Below, in pieces: positions 21,169-31,635 of a stretch of 64,000 nucleotides of DNA. The position numbers and the translations under genes are program-made. Within the stretch, counting starts at the first letter, position 1. Every line of letters begins with the position of its first letter. The notes beneath the pieces are model-generated. The model ran no database searches and was not told the DNA's origin. It worked only from the letters and a program-made list of their open reading frames with translations. The DNA is from an uncultured Candidatus Saccharibacteria bacterium (lineage in GTDB: Bacteria > Patescibacteriota > Doudnabacteria > UBA920), in the NCBI GenBank assembly GCA_964473815.1, contig CAYYQK010000001.1:881-64880 (forward strand), read 5' to 3'.

Positions 21169-21210
21169 GTCAGTTGAAAAACTGAAGATAAAATTTTTCT
21201 AAAGTTTTTT

Positions 21211-21240
21211 AAAAGCCACCCTCCTTAGGGTGGTTTTTGA
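21211..21240 (+). terminator. rho-independent terminator
   Basis: ccaccct-cctt-agggtgg hairpin followed by T5. Lies after the 19213 gene and before an extended -10 TGtggTATAAT at ~21293. Confidence 0.55.
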
Positions 21241-21350: not shown

Positions 21351-24300
21351 TTGACCTCTAAACTTGTGTTCACGAAACAAAGACAAAATTTAAAATTTTA
21401 TAAGAAAATAAAGCAATTTTTCCTACTATTTTTGACCTTAATCCAGGCCAGTTTTTTGTTTTTGAGCATTTCGCCGCTTATTTCTAAAAACGCGATAGCC
21501 GATAGCTTGCTGTGTACTTACAGCGCGAATGATGGATCCCCAAGAGGTGCAAACTCTATTTCTATTTCTACATCTTCGATCAAAGATTCCGAAGGAAACC
21601 AGATTGGCATTCAGGGCAGTATCCAGGTTATTTATGAAGCTGGAAATGCTCAAGGCATAGATTACAATAATAGTTTGGTTGCTTGTAGTGCTGATAATCT
21701 AGCGCCATATATCACTTTAATTGAACAAAATACTATCCGTGATAATCAAACCGTTTCTTCGGAATTCAGATTACAAAATGTTGCGGTAAATTCTGCAAAA
21801 ACAAAAGAAGGTGCAAACACCCTTAGTGTAAAAGGTGACTTTAGTATTCCAAATTTAGCGAGTTCGGGTTTAAATATTAATAACTTACAGAGTTATACCA
21901 AAATTCCGGCCTCCAATGTTAGAACCGTATATTTGAACTATAGTACCAGAGAGGGTAGTGGTTCCACCGGCATTACCAAATCTCCTTTTTTAAGTACTGG
22001 CAGAGACACTTATGACGCTAATCGCACTGTAAACTTATATGTTTGTAAGAATGGTACTCTTATTTGCGCAGACGTGAACTCTGGTTCGGGTGGGCCTAGT
22101 GGCGACCCAACAACAACAAACGATTTACAAATTAAATTAGGATCTCTGAAGTTGGGAGTTCGTCCGTCGGTTTCTGGGGTATCAAAGAGTATGACACCAG
22201 ATCCTAAAAAAGCGTTTATTAGAACATACATTGATGAGAATGGTAAGATAGCTGGTTTTAGTTTGGACGCCTTTATCATTCCAGCAGCACCTCCTGATAA
22301 AACTTTATATATTAAAGATGGTTCCAATAACAGTTCAGTTATAATTGGCGATCCAACCAACCTTGCCTTTAGTCCAAAGAAGGTTTTAAACTTGGGGGCA
22401 CAAATATTTAATAAAGATATTTTATTTGATTCTGCGAACAAATACGGCTGTATTAAGAATGACTTCAGTACTAATTATGTAATTGGTAATGAAACCGTGG
22501 TATTTAATTTTTGCAACCCAGCAGTTAAAGATATAGTAAATAATCAGCTGCATGTAAAAACCGATGGTTCGGCCGGTCAAAACTTCACACTAGCTTTAAA
22601 TGACACATTACTTAAGGGTTTGTTAGCATCCAATCAAGTAAAATGTACGGACCCAAAAACAGGTGAGGGATGTGATGAGACCTTAAATAAAATTCAAATT
22701 GCTCCACTTTTGAGCATAGAGAAGGCGCCTACAGCAGACACTACTTGGACTTCATTTTTTTCCAAATTACCCCAAGTAGTTGGGCAATACTTGTTAGACT
22801 CAGGGTCGGTTCCTCTTACATATACCCCAGCTGATTTTTACATAGAAATATATCCATCTAAGGCAGCTTTTGATAAGCATATTAACGATCCACCTCCGGC
22901 CGCAGTACCAGATATTCAAGATGTCGTAAGTACGGCGCAAGCAGGAACACAATCGACCGCACAAACTCTTTATGCGTTCATTGTCCGGATAATTTCAAGT
23001 ATTGTTGTTTGGCTGCAATCAATAATTTATCGAATTTTTGCTTACATTGTAGTACCTATTTTGAAAGCATTATTGAGCGTCCGTCCATATCAAGATGTAT
23101 TTGTAAATATTATCTACCCTGGCTGGTTAATTTTACGTAACTTAGCTAACATTTTCTTCATCCTTTCTCTTCTAGTTGTAGGATTAAGGATTTTGTTTCA
23201 GCAATCAGCTTCTGGAGCGGCAAGAGGGTTTATTATTAGGCTCGTGCTAATGGCGTTGCTGGTTAATTTTAGTTTAGTCATTGCTCAAGGCATTGTTGCT
23301 GTTGCAGACACGGTACAGTCACAATTCTTGCCAGCTAATTCTCGTGTAATTGAAGCTCTGGGCGCCAAGCTTATGGTTGAACCTTTGAAGAATTTCAATG
23401 AGGAAGTAGATAATAAAACTAGTATCACAAACTTAAATGCGGACCAGTCGCAGCTTGCTTTAGCTGATACTGTTAAGCCGTTGGTGTTGTTGATCTTATC
23501 AGTAGCGTCTTTCTTCTCCTTCTTGGCCATTGCAGCATTTTTGCTAGTTCGATTGGTGGCTTTATGGGTGCTATACATGACATCACCAATAGCGTACGTC
23601 GGTTTAGTTATGGGCGAGACCAGTTCGTATGCCAAGCAATGGTGGAATGAGTTTATCCATTATGTAATCATGACTCCGGTTCTGGTGTTCTTCTTAAATA
23701 TTGCTGCTCTTATGGCGATCGCCTTTTCTGGTTCGAATGATACACTCTTTAAATTCAATCAGGATAATACTCTATCTGGTGACGTTGTGATTGGCACCTT
23801 AACGATCCTCACCCACTTTATTGTTTTGGCAGTCATTTATGCAGGTATGAAATATGCCAGCAAGATGGGTGGAGCAGCAGGTAAAACAATTGTTAAGTAT
23901 GCACAAAAAGGATTTCAAAATACTTTCAAAAAACCATACCAATGGGGCAAAGCAGCTGCGATGCCAACCAAAGATTTTGTTGGAGATAAGGCTTCTGTTG
24001 GAATGGGTAAATTATTTGGCAGCAGAGCAGAAAATGTTACTCAGGCATTATTCAAGCCAAAAGATGCTTTGAGTAGTTTGAAACGTGGCATGCTAGATCG
24101 TCCTGGTGAAGACCGAAAGAAGCGGGAAAAGAAGCGCTTGGGCACGATTGATGACCAGGCTTACAAGATTATGAACAACAAGTGGAAGGCAGCAAAATAC
24201 GCGGCTTCTACACTTGCCGGCAATGGTCCTAAATTTGCTTATGGGCAAGGCTCTGCCAAAGTTGACGAGTCCCAGATATTAACAGACAAAGAATGGCAGG

Positions 24301-25514
24301 CAGCCCAGAATGATCTCACTAAAAACAAAACTGCCTTTGACGCTGCTAATGGAAGAAAAGAAGATTTCTATAAAGGATTAGTTGATGAATCGGATATAGA
24401 TAAATCATTAGGTGCACTCCAAGAAACAAAGAGTAAATTAGAAGCTGAAAGAAATGATGCGATTGCAGCTAACGATAACGAACAGGTTCAAAAAATTACT
24501 AATCGCATTGATAAGATCGATCGACTTACAAATGAACTTAATGGCGCAAAAAATGGAGCTGTTAATGGTAAAATTGATTTTAGAAATTTTCAAGATTCTA
24601 TCCCTGATGATTTGCAGGTTGAAGCTTCGGCAGTATTCGACCCAAATCAAATAAATATGGAAATCAACAAGGCTGTTAAAGATGCAGAAGCTGAAAAGAG
24701 TCGCTTGGAAGGTTTGATTCAACAAAATGACGAACGTCGCAAGAAATTTGGATACGGCGATGCAGATCCGGCGGCAGTAGGACACCGGGCCATGATAATT
24801 GCTGAAAGAGTAAGTCTGTCAGATCAGGGAAATAAAGAAATGGCAGATGCCCAAAAGCGATTCCTTGCTCCAAGTTTGGCAGAAAGAGAAGCGCGGGTTT
24901 CCGGCGAAAGAGAGCAGGCTAAAAAAATAGACGAAATAGACGATCCTGAAGAATTGTCAGCGCAATTTGAAGGAGCAATGAAAAAGAATAATATGGCTTT
25001 GGCAACTGCGATTGCGAAAAAAATGGCTAAGGAAGGTAACTTTGATAAGTTGCTGAGTGCTAATGGTTATGAAAATAATTTAAAGTCTTTCCAGGCTTTC
25101 ATGGAAAAACACTTTAAAGATATGGCCCCACAAATCCGCATGCAGATTGCTTCCGAGATAGGTTCTATAGCTGCTCAAAATGGTAACACCACCTTCGTAA
25201 AACCTACCAAAGTTGACCAAGGGGTTATGCGATGGAGTACTGAACAGGAACACCTTGCTGCCAAGCAGAGCAAGATTCAAAGTGCCTCAAGTTATGATTT
25301 GGCGAAGAAAAAGCTTTACGAAATATCCTACCAACAAAATGGTAAAAGCTATCTGGAAAAAGGTGCTATTGATAACTTTAACAGTATGACTCCCGAAAAA
25401 CTTAGAAAATATATTGAACGGAAATCTCCAAAAGAATTAGAGGATTTGAAGAAATTCGAAAATTACAGTTTATTAATGCCTGGTGTGCAGCAATTATTAG
25501 AGTCAAAAAGGTAG
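21351..25514 (+). CDS. giant (1387 aa) polytopic membrane protein: secreted N-domain, ~7 TM helices, long K/E-rich coiled-coil cytoplasmic tail; VirB6/TrbL-like by architecture
   Basis: No ATG is available in the first ~280 codons, so a TTG (21351) or GTG (21366) start is required. TM cluster at aa ~530-830. C-terminal 550 aa charged coiled coil. Confidence 0.5.
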   Translation: MTSKLVFTKQRQNLKFYKKIKQFFLLFLTLIQASFLFLSISPLISKNAIADSLLCTYSANDGSPRGANSISISTSSIKDSEGNQIGIQGSIQVIYEAGNAQGIDYNNSLVACSADNLAPYITLIEQNTIRDNQTVSSEFRLQNVAVNSAKTKEGANTLSVKGDFSIPNLASSGLNINNLQSYTKIPASNVRTVYLNYSTREGSGSTGITKSPFLSTGRDTYDANRTVNLYVCKNGTLICADVNSGSGGPSGDPTTTNDLQIKLGSLKLGVRPSVSGVSKSMTPDPKKAFIRTYIDENGKIAGFSLDAFIIPAAPPDKTLYIKDGSNNSSVIIGDPTNLAFSPKKVLNLGAQIFNKDILFDSANKYGCIKNDFSTNYVIGNETVVFNFCNPAVKDIVNNQLHVKTDGSAGQNFTLALNDTLLKGLLASNQVKCTDPKTGEGCDETLNKIQIAPLLSIEKAPTADTTWTSFFSKLPQVVGQYLLDSGSVPLTYTPADFYIEIYPSKAAFDKHINDPPPAAVPDIQDVVSTAQAGTQSTAQTLYAFIVRIISSIVVWLQSIIYRIFAYIVVPILKALLSVRPYQDVFVNIIYPGWLILRNLANIFFILSLLVVGLRILFQQSASGAARGFIIRLVLMALLVNFSLVIAQGIVAVADTVQSQFLPANSRVIEALGAKLMVEPLKNFNEEVDNKTSITNLNADQSQLALADTVKPLVLLILSVASFFSFLAIAAFLLVRLVALWVLYMTSPIAYVGLVMGETSSYAKQWWNEFIHYVIMTPVLVFFLNIAALMAIAFSGSNDTLFKFNQDNTLSGDVVIGTLTILTHFIVLAVIYAGMKYASKMGGAAGKTIVKYAQKGFQNTFKKPYQWGKAAAMPTKDFVGDKASVGMGKLFGSRAENVTQALFKPKDALSSLKRGMLDRPGEDRKKREKKRLGTIDDQAYKIMNNKWKAAKYAASTLAGNGPKFAYGQGSAKVDESQILTDKEWQAAQNDLTKNKTAFDAANGRKEDFYKGLVDESDIDKSLGALQETKSKLEAERNDAIAANDNEQVQKITNRIDKIDRLTNELNGAKNGAVNGKIDFRNFQDSIPDDLQVEASAVFDPNQINMEINKAVKDAEAEKSRLEGLIQQNDERRKKFGYGDADPAAVGHRAMIIAERVSLSDQGNKEMADAQKRFLAPSLAEREARVSGEREQAKKIDEIDDPEELSAQFEGAMKKNNMALATAIAKKMAKEGNFDKLLSANGYENNLKSFQAFMEKHFKDMAPQIRMQIASEIGSIAAQNGNTTFVKPTKVDQGVMRWSTEQEHLAAKQSKIQSASSYDLAKKKLYEISYQQNGKSYLEKGAIDNFNSMTPEKLRKYIERKSPKELEDLKKFENYSLLMPGVQQLLESKR

Positions 25515-25520
25515 TAAAAT

Positions 25521-26720
25521 ATGGAACCGCAAGAATTCCAAAATTTAATATTCCAAGCTATAAATTCTGATGACTCGGCAGCAGCCATTCAGGTTTTAGT
25601 GGCGCATAAAAATGACCCGTCTTTAGAATTGCCTCAAAATGTTGAACTTCAAATGAAGTACATTCGCATGATGAGTTTAACTGGTGAACAGCTCGTCAGC
25701 TTGATGAAACAATCCGTTTTGGCAGCCTACTCGATCCCTGAATTTGATTTGGTTGAAAAAATCAAAACCTATCTTACTCAAATGGATGATACTTTCGGTG
25801 AGATTAATCTGATTAGAAGCATTATTACTATTTTGGAAAATAGTGAAGAGATTTTGGGTAAGGGCACAATTGAAATGAAGGAAGGACCTGCCAAACCAAC
25901 AATTAAAAATTGGATTGAAGATTACCTCTCACTTTCTACATTAGAAAACGAAAAAAATGCTTTCACTGAACTCCAATACATAAATACATCTCAAAACGCA
26001 AAAGCGCTAACTACCGTTCAGGAAAAGGAAATTCTGAAGAACATTCTTAAATTAATCGATTACTGCATCGATATTAATGATCTGTGGGAGTCTGAGCCAA
26101 CACCTAAAACAGAAGCTGACGCCTACCCTGACTTTGATCTGTATAAATTTATTCCTGGCGTACGGGAGTATCTGGAAGATGAAGATATTCCACAAACTGA
26201 AGCCCCTCAACAACCCCAAATGCCCCATTTTGCGGAAGATTTGCCAACGGGTCATTATGTTGACGGTTTAAAACCGGAGTATACTGCTCCAAAGTTTTCA
26301 CACATAGCCAAAGATTTGCCTAATAATCAATATATAGATGAAATCTCGAGACCTGAGCCTCAAGAACCAAAATTGGCTGGTCAGCTCTCAGGTCAGCAGC
26401 CACCGGTAAACAAGAGTTCGACATTGCAAGGCTTAGCGAAACCAGCCCCTGTGTTGAACCAAATCTCTGGTAACAGGTCTGCAATGCCTGCAAATGATCA
26501 GGCAAAAATTCGTGAGTTACTCAACAATAAAAGCGCCGCTGATATTTCCGAACTTATCAAAAAAGCCACTCCTGTTCAAAAGCCGGGCGTTGTTAAAGAT
26601 GACACAAATATAAGTTTAAAAGATGAAAAAGAAAGACTGGAAAAAGCTCGCACCGAGCAGATTGATAGCATTGCTCAAAAGTTAGAAGATTTGCGCAACC
26701 GCCAAAAACAAAAGCAATAA
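25521..26720 (+). CDS. hypothetical cytoplasmic protein with tandem DLPxxxY(V/I)D repeats and a Q/P-rich region
   Basis: FAEDLPTGHYVDGLKPEYTAPKFSHIAKDLPNNQYIDEI internal repeat. No TM. Confidence 0.5.
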   Translation: MEPQEFQNLIFQAINSDDSAAAIQVLVAHKNDPSLELPQNVELQMKYIRMMSLTGEQLVSLMKQSVLAAYSIPEFDLVEKIKTYLTQMDDTFGEINLIRSIITILENSEEILGKGTIEMKEGPAKPTIKNWIEDYLSLSTLENEKNAFTELQYINTSQNAKALTTVQEKEILKNILKLIDYCIDINDLWESEPTPKTEADAYPDFDLYKFIPGVREYLEDEDIPQTEAPQQPQMPHFAEDLPTGHYVDGLKPEYTAPKFSHIAKDLPNNQYIDEISRPEPQEPKLAGQLSGQQPPVNKSSTLQGLAKPAPVLNQISGNRSAMPANDQAKIRELLNNKSAADISELIKKATPVQKPGVVKDDTNISLKDEKERLEKARTEQIDSIAQKLEDLRNRQKQKQ

Positions 26721-26724
26721 TTAT

Positions 26725-27507
26725 ATGTTTAACGCAAAACGTATCGAAGATATTCGTAATCGAATACAAACGAGCACCTTGCTTACTGACCACGAGAAAG
26801 CAGATTGGTTAAACTTGCTCGAGTTGATGAACGATAAGCAACTCACAGAGTTAGAAGAAATTTTAGATAGCAAGATCCAGGCAAATGCTATAATTCCGCC
26901 TCAACCTTCAGCACCGCTCTCCCCGCAACCAATGCCTGTACCAGAACCTGTCTCTCCAGAAAATGTTAAAGAAGCAGTAAAAGATGGTGTACAAGAAATT
27001 CTTACTGAAGAAATCCCTGCACCAGAATCAGTTGCAAATATCACTGCGCCACAACCAGCGCCAGCACCGATCCCACATACTTCTGCAATGCCACCGCTAA
27101 GCCATCTGGCAAACATCCCTTCTGGATTAGAAAATTCTGGCACAGCAGGCTCTATAAATACATCCACACCTGAAGGTATCGAACCACCTCTAGCCCCAGC
27201 TCCCGTCTCGCATACTAAAGAACACGGCACGCAAGTATTTCTACTGGACCGCTACGAAAATCTGGCCAATTTAAATATTGGTTCACTTCGGGCGCACGAC
27301 TGGGAATCGATTACCCGCCAAGTTAAGCGAGTTACCCAAGAGCATGGTTATTTCAAAGTTTTACACTTAATTGAGGCTAGTCCTTTGTTCAGTACTTATA
27401 TTAAATCTGGCCTTATGCGCTTGAATGGACAAGAATCAGAAATGACACAGGAAGAATTCGAATTTATGGCTGATTTACTCAATCACATGCGAATCAATCG
27501 ATGGTAA
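26725..27507 (+). CDS. proline-rich hypothetical protein
   Basis: PAPAPIP/PQPSAP low-complexity centre. Structured C-terminus. Confidence 0.45.
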   Translation: MFNAKRIEDIRNRIQTSTLLTDHEKADWLNLLELMNDKQLTELEEILDSKIQANAIIPPQPSAPLSPQPMPVPEPVSPENVKEAVKDGVQEILTEEIPAPESVANITAPQPAPAPIPHTSAMPPLSHLANIPSGLENSGTAGSINTSTPEGIEPPLAPAPVSHTKEHGTQVFLLDRYENLANLNIGSLRAHDWESITRQVKRVTQEHGYFKVLHLIEASPLFSTYIKSGLMRLNGQESEMTQEEFEFMADLLNHMRINRW

Positions 27508-27529
27508 ATATGGTATAATATATTGAAAC

Positions 27530-27991
27530 ATGCAATTTCCAGTTCCACAATTTACTGATGTAGAGGACCGCATTATTGGCGGATTATCGTTTAAGCAGTT
27601 CGGCATTGTGTTTGCTGCTGCTGTTTTTACTTTTGTGATGTATATCATCAGTAACAAAAATATTCCCGTTGCGATCGTTACTGGAATTGTGACTGGTGTC
27701 CCGGCTTTAGCATTAACTTTTGGCAAATTAAATGGTCGACCGCTCTATGCCAGCGCTGGTAACTTCGTAAAATATTTATTTGGCGCCAAAATTTACGTTT
27801 TTCATAAACAAGGCCAGACAATTTCTGAAACAGATAAAACCGCTGTAATAGTAGAACAGCAACCTGAACCAAAAGATCCAAAAGCGACTACGATCAAAAT
27901 AAAGGAATTAAATTATTTACTGCAACAACAAGCATCGGAAGAAAATATGTTGCTGCAACGTATCCGTGAAAATAAGGCCGCTGCTAAATAA
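27530..27991 (+). CDS. small two-TM membrane protein in the VirB3/PrgI-like position upstream of VirB4
   Basis: Two hydrophobic helices. Extended -10 TGgTATAAT 10 nt before ATG. Confidence 0.45.
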   Translation: MQFPVPQFTDVEDRIIGGLSFKQFGIVFAAAVFTFVMYIISNKNIPVAIVTGIVTGVPALALTFGKLNGRPLYASAGNFVKYLFGAKIYVFHKQGQTISETDKTAVIVEQQPEPKDPKATTIKIKELNYLLQQQASEENMLLQRIRENKAAAK

Positions 27992-27996
27992 ACAAA

Positions 27997-28692
27997 ATGG
28001 CAAATACCAAAACAAAAAAAACTATTGGCAGTCCGACGCAGAGCTTTTTGAGGGTGGCCGAAATTCGCGATGACACCATAATTATGGACGACGGCACTTT
28101 GCGCGCGGTATTGACTGTGTCGAGTACAAATTTTGATTTAAAAAGTGAAGAAGAACAAAACGCTTTGATTTATAGCTATCAAAGATTTTTGAATTCTTTA
28201 GAGTTTCATATTCAGATTGTATTGCAAAGTCGCAAGATGGACATCAATGAATACACAGAAAAGTTGAAAGGCTTAATGGAACGCCAAACCAATGAACTAC
28301 TACGTATGCAAACCACAGAGTATATTGAGTTCATTAACCGTTTAGTTGAGTCAGCCAACGTGATGAGCAAAAATTTCTATGTGATCGTACCCTACGAAAG
28401 TAGTTTAAATTCAACTGTTTCGGTTGGTTTCTTTAGTCGGATATTAGGAACTGGCAAAGTTCAGCAACTTGAAGCAAAAAGTAAGGCGTTTGCTGACTAT
28501 CGAAAAGCATTAAGCGAACGCGTTGGTAGTGTAGCAGCAAACTTAGGCAGTGCTGGTTTGCGCGTAGTGCGTCTGAATACTGACCAACTCATCGAACTAG
28601 TTTATAATTCGTACAATTTTGGCGCTGGTCCAACTATCGATGCCAGTCAGTTACCGAAAGTAACCATTACCGAAGAGGAGATTAAAAAATGA
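27997..28692 (+). CDS. hypothetical protein translationally coupled to VirB4-like ATPase; possibly a detached VirB4 N-terminal domain
   Basis: Stop overlaps the next start (ATGA). Combined length 231+614 aa matches a typical VirB4 (~800 aa). Confidence 0.45.
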   Translation: MANTKTKKTIGSPTQSFLRVAEIRDDTIIMDDGTLRAVLTVSSTNFDLKSEEEQNALIYSYQRFLNSLEFHIQIVLQSRKMDINEYTEKLKGLMERQTNELLRMQTTEYIEFINRLVESANVMSKNFYVIVPYESSLNSTVSVGFFSRILGTGKVQQLEAKSKAFADYRKALSERVGSVAANLGSAGLRVVRLNTDQLIELVYNSYNFGAGPTIDASQLPKVTITEEEIKK

Positions 28693-30533
28693 GTTTATTC
28701 TCACTAAAGAAAGATGATTTAACTGCTAAGCGTCAGGAGCTTGAGCATTTAAAGGGGCAAATTTCCGCCGATGCAAAACTCGCCGAAGTCGAGCAAGATT
28801 TTCGCGAAGGTTTAACAACCTTAAAAGATTTACTCGCTCCATCAAGTTTAAAATTTACTGGTAATTATTTTGAAATTAACGGTAAATTTGCGCGGACGTT
28901 TTTTGCCTTGGCTTACCCAAGGTTTTTGTCATCGAACTGGCTTAGCTTTATCATCAACTCGGAAAGTGCCTTAGATGTGTCGATGTTTATTTATCCGGTC
29001 GATAGTGCTGTGGTCATGAAAAAATTGAAGTCCAAGGTAGGGGAAATCGGCTCGCAAATTATTGTTGAGCAGGAAAAAGGTTTAGTGCGTAATCCATTGC
29101 TGGAAACAGCGTATCACGATGTTGAAGAGCTTCGCGATTCTTTGCAACAGGGAACAGAACGATATTTCCGTTTCGCATTGTACTTTACTCTATATTCCGA
29201 CACACTTGAAGAACTCGACAAGAATTCAAATATTTTAGAAAGCGCACTGGGTGCAAAACTAGTTGTGACAAAGCGCGCCATGCTTTCCACTGAGCCTGGG
29301 TTTAACTCCACTCTTCCTCTTGGCCTTGATGAACTCGATATTGCCAATAACTTAAACACTTCGCCGCTGTCGAGCACTTTTCCTTTCGTGTCTTCGGATT
29401 TAACCGGTAATGATGGAATTTTATATGGGATTAATCGGCACAACAATAGTTTGATTTTATTTGATCGCTTCCAAATGGAAAACGCTAATTTTGTGGTATT
29501 CGCAAAATCTGGTGCTGGAAAATCTTACTCAGTTAAACTAGAAATTTTACGTTCGCTCATGGTTGGTACTGAAGTTATCGTCATTGACCCGGAAAACGAG
29601 TATCAACATTTGGCCGAAGCTGTTGGCGGAACGTTCCTAAACATTTCACTCAACTCAGATTTCCGCATCAACCCTTTCGATTTACCAGTTGGCGTAAAGG
29701 ACGAAGAGCCTGCCGATATTTTGCGCAGTGCAATTATTAACCTGCTCGGCTTGATGAATTTAGTGTTGGGCGATTTAGACCCAACCGAGGAAGCGTTGCT
29801 CGACAAAGCGATGTGGGCTACATACGCGAAAAAAGATATTACCGAAACAACTGACTTCAGAACTGCAGAAATGCCTGTGATGGCAGACTTAATTGAAGTT
29901 TTGTCTGGCACGGTGGGAGCGGAAAGCCTAGCACAAAGATTAGAAAAATTTACTAGCGGGACATTTGCTGGGTTGCTTAACCAACCAACTAATGTCCAGT
30001 TAAACAACCAACTATTAGTCTTTTCTATTCGCGATCTGGAAGATCAACTGCGCCCGATCGCAATGTATATTATTCTTGGCCATATCTGGAACTTAGTTCG
30101 TAGTGAACTAAAGAAGCGCATTTTGGTTTTGGATGAAGCCTGGATTATGATGCAGCATGAAGATTCAGCTAGATTTGTATTCAGTATTGCCAAACGTGCC
30201 CGCAAATATTACCTTGGGCTTACTACCATCACTCAGGACGTTGCCGACTTTATGGCTAGTCCGTATGGTAAACCAATCGTAACTAACTCATCAATTCAGT
30301 TACTGCTCAAGCAAAGCCCGGCTGCCATTGATATAGTCGCCGAAACTTTCTTCTTAACCGAAGGCGAAAAATATTTACTACTCGAGAGCGATGTTGGCGA
30401 AGGAATTTTCTTTGCTGGTTTAAAGCACGCTGCTATCAAGATTTACGCTTCGTATGTTGAGGACCAGATCATTACAACAGATCCGAAACAGTTGCTTGAA
30501 ATCGAAGAGAGTAAAGAACAATTAAAGAGTTAA
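28689..30533 (+). CDS. VirB4/TrbE/TraC-family type IV secretion ATPase (C-terminal ATPase domain)
   Basis: Walker A FAKSGAGKS, VirB4-signature Walker B ILVLDEAWIM, and conserved RKY/TQ motifs downstream. Confidence 0.8.
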   Translation: MSLFSLKKDDLTAKRQELEHLKGQISADAKLAEVEQDFREGLTTLKDLLAPSSLKFTGNYFEINGKFARTFFALAYPRFLSSNWLSFIINSESALDVSMFIYPVDSAVVMKKLKSKVGEIGSQIIVEQEKGLVRNPLLETAYHDVEELRDSLQQGTERYFRFALYFTLYSDTLEELDKNSNILESALGAKLVVTKRAMLSTEPGFNSTLPLGLDELDIANNLNTSPLSSTFPFVSSDLTGNDGILYGINRHNNSLILFDRFQMENANFVVFAKSGAGKSYSVKLEILRSLMVGTEVIVIDPENEYQHLAEAVGGTFLNISLNSDFRINPFDLPVGVKDEEPADILRSAIINLLGLMNLVLGDLDPTEEALLDKAMWATYAKKDITETTDFRTAEMPVMADLIEVLSGTVGAESLAQRLEKFTSGTFAGLLNQPTNVQLNNQLLVFSIRDLEDQLRPIAMYIILGHIWNLVRSELKKRILVLDEAWIMMQHEDSARFVFSIAKRARKYYLGLTTITQDVADFMASPYGKPIVTNSSIQLLLKQSPAAIDIVAETFFLTEGEKYLLLESDVGEGIFFAGLKHAAIKIYASYVEDQIITTDPKQLLEIEESKEQLKS

Positions 30534-30534
30534 T

Positions 30535-31635
30535 ATGTTTTTGGACGACGACCGCGATTTCTCTTCGTCCTCGGACGCAGTTCGTCGAGCGGACGATGAG
30601 CTTTTTAATGATGGTTCGACCGTTGCAGATTCTGAATATCAAAGCACTAACGAATACGGTCAGCAAGATCCAGATTATCAGGCTTATCGGCAGTCAGAGC
30701 AGCAACAGGAACGCAAACGTAGTTTATTAGAAGAAGCCAAACGACAAGCTCGACGAGGTCGGGCAACTGTACAAAACACAGTTCCTAAAAAACTTGGAGA
30801 AGCATTAGGTGATAAGCACATGTTCCGAGATGATACAGACGAAGCACGCGAAAGAGCCAAAGAAATAGCCAGAAAAAAGGCGCGCAAAGCCGCCTCTGAT
30901 TTTATTGGCGACAAAGTTGCTGACAAAGGCCTGAAGACAGGAATGCGTAAAGCGCTGTCTAAAGAAGCGGGCGCTACTGCTAAAGCAGGGGCGAAAAAAG
31001 CCGCGCAGTCGGTTGCTAAAGGCGCAGCAAAAACTGGTGCAGAAACCGCAGCTAAGGAAGGGGTAAAGGCGGGAGCGAAACTCGCAGCTGATAATATTGG
31101 AACAGCTGTTGGTGCAGCTACTGGTGTGGAAACATTTGGATTTGGGTTTTTACTTGGATTATTGATTAATATCGCGGTCAGCTTAGGAGTGAATGATGTT
31201 GTTGATGCAGCCTTTGAATTAAGTAGTGGAAATTTTAAGCGCGCCCGCTTTTTATACATTAGAGGTGGTACACGAGTCGGTATATTTGTTATTTTCTTAT
31301 TAGTCATAATCGGGATGTTAACCATTGGAGGGATGATCGCAGCAATACCAGCATTATTTGCCTTAAACATTTACATGATTTTAGGAAAAATTTATCCGAA
31401 TTTTGCGCCACTGCAAGGTATAGTCTGGTGGGAAGCAGCGATAATTATTATCATTGATATTTTTGCAATTTTAATAGCCTTTGCATTTATAATGAGCTTG
31501 GGTTGGTATTTGTGCAATGGTGTAGGTACTACGGCGGTCGCTGTGTATAACTGGTGGAGCCCAAGTGCTGCCGGAAGTGTGGCAGCTCAATTCTGTAAAT
31601 TTGTTAATACTGTTGCTGGAACCATTAAGCCGTAA
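30535..31635 (+). CDS. membrane protein: acidic disordered N-terminus, K/A-rich segment, ~5 TM helices (VirB6/TrbL-like or other T4SS membrane component, speculative)
   Basis: Composition and hydropathy only. Immediately follows the VirB4-like gene. Confidence 0.45.
   Translation: MFLDDDRDFSSSSDAVRRADDELFNDGSTVADSEYQSTNEYGQQDPDYQAYRQSEQQQERKRSLLEEAKRQARRGRATVQNTVPKKLGEALGDKHMFRDDTDEARERAKEIARKKARKAASDFIGDKVADKGLKTGMRKALSKEAGATAKAGAKKAAQSVAKGAAKTGAETAAKEGVKAGAKLAADNIGTAVGAATGVETFGFGFLLGLLINIAVSLGVNDVVDAAFELSSGNFKRARFLYIRGGTRVGIFVIFLLVIIGMLTIGGMIAAIPALFALNIYMILGKIYPNFAPLQGIVWWEAAIIIIIDIFAILIAFAFIMSLGWYLCNGVGTTAVAVYNWWSPSAAGSVAAQFCKFVNTVAGTIKP

Follow-up and report, generated by a model that had tools for sequence, protein, structure and literature searches.

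The VirB4 protein of a type IV secretion-like operon on a Patescibacteria chromosome is very probably a genuine, evolutionarily stable two-gene product, its first part encoded by a 231-aa ORF and the remainder by a 614-aa ATPase ORF that follows directly. The two genes lie in a stretch of 64,000 nucleotides that was analysed as a whole and is referred to below as the window. Support for the two-gene reading comes from homology, from colinear matches of the pair to HMMs and to fused relatives, from the similarity of fold to TrwK/VirB4, from conservation of the split at 79 of 79 loci, and from the independence of the two reading frames. The pairing of TrsD with a short VirB4 is the norm in this lineage; it has already been published (Quiñonero-Coronel et al. 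2025, Microb Genom; PMC12102498), and families in both Pfam (PF26593) and NCBIfam (TrsD/TraD) cover it.

A preliminary description of the same DNA had drawn attention to the overlap, by ATGA, of the stop of the 231-aa ORF with the start of the 614-aa ORF in a different frame, and both the ORF list and the sequence bear this out. Two explanations were offered there. The first, a two-gene VirB4 with coupled translation, has held up as an arrangement, with the coupling itself a plausible extension of it. The second, a frameshift or recoding site, has not survived the comparison of junction geometry and reading frame among relatives, the evidence for a start codon belonging to the ATPase gene, and the recovery of an identical 231-aa protein from NCBI, ENA and Logan.

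Genomic setting of the split virB4

The two genes belong to a tightly packed, single-strand operon (21351-31635) in which spacers run from -4 to 22 nt (Table 1). A terminator-like hairpin (21209-21240) precedes the operon, a PD40 propeller gene, radA and recG lie 3' of it, and the setting is chromosomal. No gene for a relaxase or a coupling protein was found among the operon genes examined. A scan for promoters and terminators returned 23 promoter-like sites, against 29.6 expected in shuffled sequence, and gave no convincing signal at the junction of the two ORFs.

Table 1. Features of the operon that contains the split virB4 (positions in the window)
Feature	Position	Strand	Remarks
Polytopic membrane protein, possibly VirB6/TrbL-like; first operon gene	21351..25514	+	1387 aa; weak assignment
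Two conserved operon genes between the VirB6-like gene and prgI	25521..27507	+	399 aa and 260 aa
PrgI/VirB3-like small membrane protein	27530..27991	+	153 aa; Pfam PF12666 PrgI, 8.5e-09, 36.3 bits (cutoff 27)
Small ORF, TrsD-like (Pfam 'TraC-like')	27997..28692	+	231 aa; ATG start, TGA stop; probable detached VirB4 N-terminal module
Shine-Dalgarno-like motif AAGAGGAG	28673..28680	+	within 3' end of the 231-aa gene, 8 nt ahead of the ATPase ATG; read from sequence, putative function
Start/stop overlap ATGA	28689..28692	+	4 nt; joins the 231-aa and 614-aa genes
Large ORF, short VirB4 ATPase	28689..30533	+	614 aa; ATG start; second half of the N-terminal region plus P-loop ATPase domain
Downstream operon gene	30535..31635	+	366 aa; C-terminal half hydrophobic; starts 1 nt past the ATPase stop

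The assignment of the first gene is tentative. Its 1387-aa product matches Pfam TrbL below the cutoff (0.029), the identical gene at locus L001 carries a precomputed, weak PF19590 TrbL_3 match, and a large gene is syntenic with it at L002, L004 and L090. The next two genes, flanked by spacers of 4-22 nt, correspond in position to genes of similar size in L002 and L004, and family searches in Pfam and NCBIfam gave no match for either product. PrgI, which is the VirB3 homologue of Gram-positive bacteria, is encoded directly 5' of the split VirB4, and the gene holds the directly upstream position at L002, L004, L005, L006, L089 and L090 as well. The 366-aa protein encoded downstream also had no match in Pfam or NCBIfam; the gene at its position varies in length, specifying 649 aa in L002 and 593 aa (with a weak SLT match) in L004.

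The ATPase and its detached N-terminal region

An ATPase of the VirB4 type is encoded by the 614-aa ORF, which matches the Pfam families P-loop_TraG (2.4e-25), AAA_10 (2e-11) and DUF87 (3e-9), with a CagE_TrbE_VirB region at residues 43-210 and the P-loop ATPase domain at 262-566, and a Walker A motif (GAGKS) and a Walker B-like motif (LVLDEAW) can be read in the translation. The best full-length model, NCBIfam NF045971 (CD1110-type VirB4), is matched above its cutoff of 325 (4.3e-109, 365.9 bits), though only model positions 157-728 of 752 are covered; scores for TIGR00929 (118.7 vs 643) and NF045975 (260.7 vs 590) lie under the respective cutoffs. In keeping with a VirB4, the gene stands beside a VirB3/PrgI gene in a type IV secretion cluster, with PrgI upstream and a weak VirB6/TrbL-like gene present as well. 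It does not encode a single chain of some 750-900 aa with a complete VirB4 N-terminal region.

The 231-aa ORF matches the same three full-length VirB4 models: NF045971 at positions 3-124 (E 9e-6), NF045975 at positions 98-234 (E 3.7e-11) and TIGR00929 at positions 19-176 (E 7e-4), each match taken individually being under its curated cutoff. The pair therefore covers each of the three models colinearly and without overlap. The expectation of the preliminary description that the two products, 845 aa together, would amount to a full VirB4 thus agrees with the complementary positions they occupy in the same VirB4 models. A further match is to NF041427, the TrsD/TraD model (E 1.9e-6, 27.8 bits, not reaching the cutoff of 200; positions 24-150 of 201), and, as expected of a TrsD/TraD protein, the 231-aa protein is remotely homologous to the N-terminal part of VirB4. 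Precomputed matches to PF26593 (TraC-like) are recorded for an identical protein (P0001) and for every one of the best 120 of its 659 homologues. A local hmmscan of the ORF against Pfam-A listed only PF11130 TraC_F_IV, at E 0.0093, and not PF26593. Some homologues carry the public annotation 'TraC family protein' or 'type IV secretory pathway VirB4 component'.

Similarity to the proteobacterial proteins is seen in the predicted fold. A sequence search of the PDB with a 12-sequence profile of the 231-aa protein found nothing relevant, and hhalign of a deep profile against the TrwK sequence gave a non-significant alignment (E 0.056 over 29 columns). An AlphaFold model based at first on 12 sequences was of low quality (pLDDT 59), and its Foldseek matches, all of them to TrwK, were not significant. 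The model that replaced it, built from a 107-sequence alignment, predicts a fold that resembles TrwK/VirB4, with Foldseek E-values of 2e-3 to 9e-2. Because the hhalign comparison with the TrwK sequence was not significant, the probable link to proteobacterial VirB4 is made through structure and intermediate HMMs, not through direct sequence similarity. The order PrgI, 231 aa, 614 aa would thus correspond to VirB3, VirB4 N-terminus and VirB4 C-terminus.

Relatives in which the two parts are fused

Direct evidence for colinearity with intact VirB4 emerged from a profile search with the 231-aa family against 1.84 billion cluster representatives (E<=1e-3), in which 2,821 clusters were found. The best 150 of these comprise 148 stand-alone proteins, 157-443 aa in length, and two others, P0236 (898 aa) and P0253 (797 aa), which have the length of VirB4 and are complete VirB4 proteins by NCBIfam. 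In BLASTP comparisons with P0253, residues 14-207 of the 231-aa ORF align to 8-208 (37% identity, 3e-43) and residues 41-610 of the 614-aa ORF to 226-796 (56% identity); with P0236, residues 1-207 of the former align to 1-208 (38% identity, 8e-47) and residues 33-603 of the latter to 317-890 (55% identity). These alignments are colinear, which places the split point within a linker that varies in length and is poorly conserved. Both fused genes are real: the five contigs with P0236 include some that come from two separate sequencing runs, and P0253 adjoins dnaA in the MAG contig CAZTUR010000004.

One might instead suppose that a naturally short VirB4 happens to have the gene of an accessory protein of other origin beside it, and that the 231-aa protein resembles the VirB4 N-terminus by chance. 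The sub-cutoff HMM matches, the non-significant hhalign result against TrwK and the modest Foldseek E-values all lean that way, and we nonetheless consider such a coincidence highly improbable. The preliminary description had named, as grounds for abandoning a split VirB4, a small protein clearly assigned to an unrelated family, together with orthologues that consistently keep two genes and show no similarity to the VirB4 N-domain. Two genes are indeed retained in the orthologues, yet the small protein does resemble the VirB4 N-domain.

Conservation of the two-gene arrangement

If the division of virB4 were peculiar to this sequence, an error or a recent mutation might account for it. Eighty loci were taken from GTDB species representatives and other loci were added; junctions were measured in 79 Patescibacteria loci, the nearest of which come from Saccharibacteria, Doudnabacteria and Patescibacteria MAGs. 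The pair is encoded by two separate genes at every one of the 79 and is fused at none, with identities of 51 to 84%. Each product is strongly conserved in its own right: mean column identity in the shallow alignment (A1) is 76%, all of the best 120 of 659 homologues of the 231-aa protein (62-100% identity) are 225-240 aa long, and 65 of the 73 complete ATPase ORFs have a length of 613-617 aa. The ATPase begins with ATG at 75 of the 79 loci and with GTG or TTG at 4, and its N-terminus is conserved as M-[SAG]-L-F, the version here being MSLFS.

What is not conserved is the junction. The -4 overlap is confined to two of the 79 loci, the window and L007, and a -1 overlap (TAATG) occurs at nine. 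Elsewhere the genes are separated by 1-25 nt (n=32), 26-130 nt (n=17), 131-300 nt (n=4) or more than 300 nt (n=15), the longest gaps exceeding 400 nt. The frame of the ATPase gene relative to its neighbor is 0, 1 or 2 at 21, 24 and 34 loci, respectively. An extra small gene sits between the pair at about 12 of the roughly 15 loci with gaps above 300 nt, and there the ATPase gene must therefore be expressed from its own start.

The ATGA junction

The 231-aa gene ends in GAG GAG ATT AAA AAA TGA, and the ATPase ATG occupies 28689-28691, so that the 614-aa gene is read in the -1 (+2) frame relative to its neighbor. Four-nucleotide ATGA overlaps are very common between the genes of bacterial operons, and for that reason the geometry of the overlap is by itself nothing unusual. 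Motifs comparable to the Shine-Dalgarno-like sequence ahead of the ATPase start, of the AGGAG type, are seen in the closest relatives, L007 and L008.

The feature that invites other explanations is the run of six A residues immediately 5' of the TGA stop. Homopolymers are prone to indels, and an insertion or deletion in sequencing or assembly, or else a recent frameshift or pseudogenisation, could in principle have broken a single virB4 of about 845 aa; the sum of 231 and 614 aa matches a full-length VirB4, and fused relatives exist. Against this, the identical 231-aa protein is recorded in NCBI, in ENA and in Logan, whose assemblies are made independently from public runs, and was read on four contigs. 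Nor is the break private to this sequence, given the want of a single fused gene among the 79 related loci and the conservation of both products as separate units. L007 has the same ATGA overlap with no A-run (ACC AAA TGA), and the MSLFS terminus of the ATPase is conserved as a start. An indel or pseudogene is so improbable, on these observations, that it can be regarded as effectively refuted already.

Programmed -1 ribosomal frameshifting is a second explanation, in which slippage on A AAA AAA before the TGA would yield a fused VirB4 alongside the separate proteins. An A-run followed by a stop is a known shifty context, and the ATPase gene does lie in the -1 frame. With TGA in the A site, tRNA-Lys could slip from AAA (28687-28689) to AAA (28686-28688), from where translation would read into ATG AGT and produce a seamless fusion. 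The zero-frame context, however, is ATT AAA AAA TGA, that is T AAA AAA, and holds no canonical X XXY YYZ heptamer. Neither the slippery motif nor the frame relation is conserved among the 79 loci, where all three frames and gaps of hundreds of nucleotides occur; the nearest relative with an equal overlap lacks the run, and others have TAATG (as at L002) or stop-containing spacers (the spacer at L004 is 13 nt). The ATPase gene has, moreover, an ATG and a Shine-Dalgarno-like motif of its own. Programmed frameshifting is accordingly given a very small probability, because the site is non-canonical and nothing about it is conserved. A restricted version, in which the junction of this strain only also gives a little fused VirB4 by -1 slippage, is much less likely than the functional fission considered below. 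All told, frameshift, recoding and pseudogene were rejected on comparative grounds, namely the 79 junctions and the ATPase's own start.

A model for the two-gene VirB4

In the two-gene reading, the first ~210 residues of the VirB4 N-terminal region would be made as the 231-aa protein, and the rest of that region, with the ATPase domain, as the 614-aa protein. The gene order prgI(VirB3)-trsD-virB4 would then mirror the order VirB3-VirB4 from N- to C-terminus. The three products may assemble non-covalently at the cytoplasmic membrane and so rebuild the VirB3-VirB4 inner-membrane complex, in which the TrsD-like piece, by homology, would be the part that lies close to the membrane, contacts VirB3 and dimerises. 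The ATPase hexamer, together with what remains of the N-terminal region, would come from the 614-aa piece. In this genome the ATGA overlap and the internal Shine-Dalgarno-like motif could couple translation of the two genes from one mRNA. Such coupling would be a convenience of this genome, not something on which the system generally depends, since gaps occur at the junction in most relatives and an inserted gene in about 12.

It is possible, if rather unlikely, that the fission is functional and not neutral, the free TrsD-like module serving as an adaptor that can be dosed independently and exchanged, and by which the VirB4 ring is docked onto PrgI/VirB3. An adaptor of this kind would allow a stoichiometry or a regulated attachment beyond those of a single-chain VirB4, and might account for the persistence of separate genes in thousands of systems from Patescibacteria and Firmicutes, where fusion is rare.

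For annotation, the small ORF is best named as a TrsD-like module of the VirB4 N-terminus, and the name VirB4 belongs to the large ORF, neither being a pseudogene or part of a recoding site. Beyond that correction the significance is small, published knowledge being refined and no discovery made. The comparison does point to a testable role for TrsD as the detached, VirB3-contacting part of VirB4, a role suggested by the colinearity with the fused forms, the TrwK fold match and the split point shared with pSK41.

Comparison with known systems

Single-chain VirB4 proteins are represented by TrwK of R388 (PDB 7O42/7O43/8RTB), VirB4 of A. tumefaciens and PrgJ of pCF10. Their ATPase domain, CagE_TrbE_VirB region and N-terminal fold all have counterparts here, and a VirB3 homologue is encoded directly 5' in both cases; the difference is that the first ~210 residues here form a separate polypeptide. 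[quoted passage not shown] The reverse rearrangement, a fusion of VirB3 to VirB4, is found in some other systems (PMC12624023). Closer at hand, the fused Patescibacteria TraC-like/VirB4 proteins P0253 and P0236 share with this pair both their colinear layout and a PrgI gene directly upstream, but are single chains with a linker of 17 (P0253) or ~108 residues (P0236) where the window has a stop/start junction.

Separate genes are also found on plasmids. A tblastn search of plasmids detected stand-alone homologues of the 231-aa protein, at 23-33% identity, on Firmicutes and haloarchaeal plasmids, among them Geobacillus pGspE55-1 and a C. difficile plasmid, which encode PrgI, a hypothetical protein (318/322 aa) and a DUF87 ATPase (636/640 aa). 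The prototype, the staphylococcal conjugative plasmid pSK41, has the same order, with the small two-TM protein TraC (135 aa), TrsD (227 aa) and the DUF87 ATPase TraE (672 aa), as the 153-, 231- and 614-aa products here. The TrsD/TraD-TrsE/TraE proteins of pGO1 and pSK41 fall in the pGO1 subclass of MPF_FATA (NCBIfam NF041427; CONJScan TrsD). Residues 47-585 of the 614-aa ORF align to 36-617 of TraE (3e-33), so both ATPases begin at an equivalent point. By hhalign, the deep profile (A2) matches pSK41 TrsD over 167 columns, nearly the whole protein (E 2e-5, probability 77%), and the shallow profile (A1) matches it weakly (E 0.008). The two systems differ in that sequence identity is very low (~19%), and in that pSK41 is a conjugative plasmid with a relaxase and a coupling protein, whereas the genes here form a chromosomal operon beside radA and recG.

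The nearest precedent is the Patescibacteria type IV secretion system itself. Quiñonero-Coronel et al. (PMC12102498) detected these proteins with a TrsD HMM and found that TrsD adjoins virB4 in Patescibacteria and is the most abundant component of their systems, counting 2,272 homologues across 2,221 assemblies, with 1,664 located near virB4. They describe TrsD as a remote homologue of the N-terminal portion of VirB4 with no assigned function, citing Guglielmini et al. 2014 (PMC4027160) for the homology; the word TrsD is absent from the main text of that paper, and the statement is citable only through PMC12102498. The Patescibacteria system matters biologically in that, in Ca. Southlakia epibionticum, it is reported as essential for epibiotic growth, and the TrsD homologue of strain ML1 is listed as essential (PMC12102498). 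The operon described here comes from the same phylum-level group and is likewise chromosomal, with VirB6-like, PrgI/VirB3, TrsD-like and VirB4 genes, the TrsD-like gene directly 5' of virB4, and neither relaxase nor coupling protein among the operon genes examined. There is no substantive difference, and the window is a further instance of the published system; the colinear alignment to fused proteins, the resemblance to the TrwK fold and the junction statistics fill in detail and leave the overall picture as it was.

Small genes at the trsD-like/virB4 junction

In about 12 related Patescibacteria loci, an extra small gene lies on the same strand between the trsD-like gene and virB4. These inserts fall into two families that are unrelated to each other. 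One is TIGR02436 "four helix bundle protein", a 23S rRNA intervening-sequence protein family (matches of 2e-34 and 1e-21); the other is TIGR04256 "GxxExxY protein" (1.5e-9 to 4e-13). Evidently, different small genes have repeatedly inserted at this one intergenic site.

In two loci with a GxxExxY insertion, L054 and L064, the ATPase reading frame is interrupted, leaving ORFs of only 62 aa and 331 aa, respectively; these are possibly pseudogenes or assembly errors. At another related locus, L022, the ATPase ORF reaches 872 aa, some 260 aa above the usual VirB4 length, and is possibly a fusion with the downstream gene.

Coordinates of junction inserts and associated features
Feature	Location	Remarks
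Junction insert gene	L036:4682-5077	same strand as trsD-like/virB4
Junction insert gene	L050:4728-5099	same strand as trsD-like/virB4
Junction insert gene	L045:4722-5138	same strand as trsD-like/virB4
Junction insert gene	L051:1777-2175	same strand as trsD-like/virB4
Junction insert gene	L054:4682-5092	same strand as trsD-like/virB4
Junction insert gene	L049, L058, L064, L066, L067, L078, L082	
virB4-downstream gene	window 30535-31635	366 aa
virB4-downstream gene	L002:8533-10482	649 aa
virB4-downstream gene	L004:8562-10343	593 aa; weak SLT (lytic transglycosylase) match
Terminator-like hairpin	window 21209-21240	
PrgI, TrsD-like, VirB4 module with preceding genes	L005:3306-7734	Geobacillus plasmid
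PrgI, TrsD-like, VirB4 module with preceding genes	L006:3220-7776	C. difficile plasmid
Fused gene, P0253	L089:544-2937	797 aa
Fused gene, P0236	L090:4001-6697; L091:1431-4127	898 aa

Probable 5' limit of the operon and the gene after virB4

Immediately 5' of the 1387-aa first gene is a strong terminator-like hairpin, with a 14-bp stem and a T-run after it, which probably marks the 5' limit of the T4SS operon. On the other side of virB4, the gene directly 3' differs widely in length across the syntenic loci (the window, L002 and L004); this gene could encode a VirB1-like or surface component that evolves quickly.

Arrangements in other lineages

In rare Patescibacteria lineages, the TraC-like module and VirB4 are joined in a single protein (P0253 and P0236). 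A PrgI gene is found directly 5' of both fused genes, and rnpA, yidC and dnaA are neighbours of that for P0253.

The Geobacillus and C. difficile plasmids, both typed "non-mobilizable", share an arrangement in which genes for a sigma-70 family factor and a thioredoxin-fold protein stand 5' of the module. Their TrsD-like proteins (318 and 322 aa, respectively) carry an extension of about 90 aa.

A further arrangement is suggested by the actinobacterial NCBIfam family SCO6880 (477 positions), to which three window ORFs (27530-30533) gave weak colinear matches: PrgI at positions 12-79, the 231-aa ORF at 233-297, and the beginning of the ATPase ORF at 363-477. This colinearity suggests that in Actinobacteria a single protein would combine VirB3 with the entire VirB4 N-terminal region, the cut point being different.
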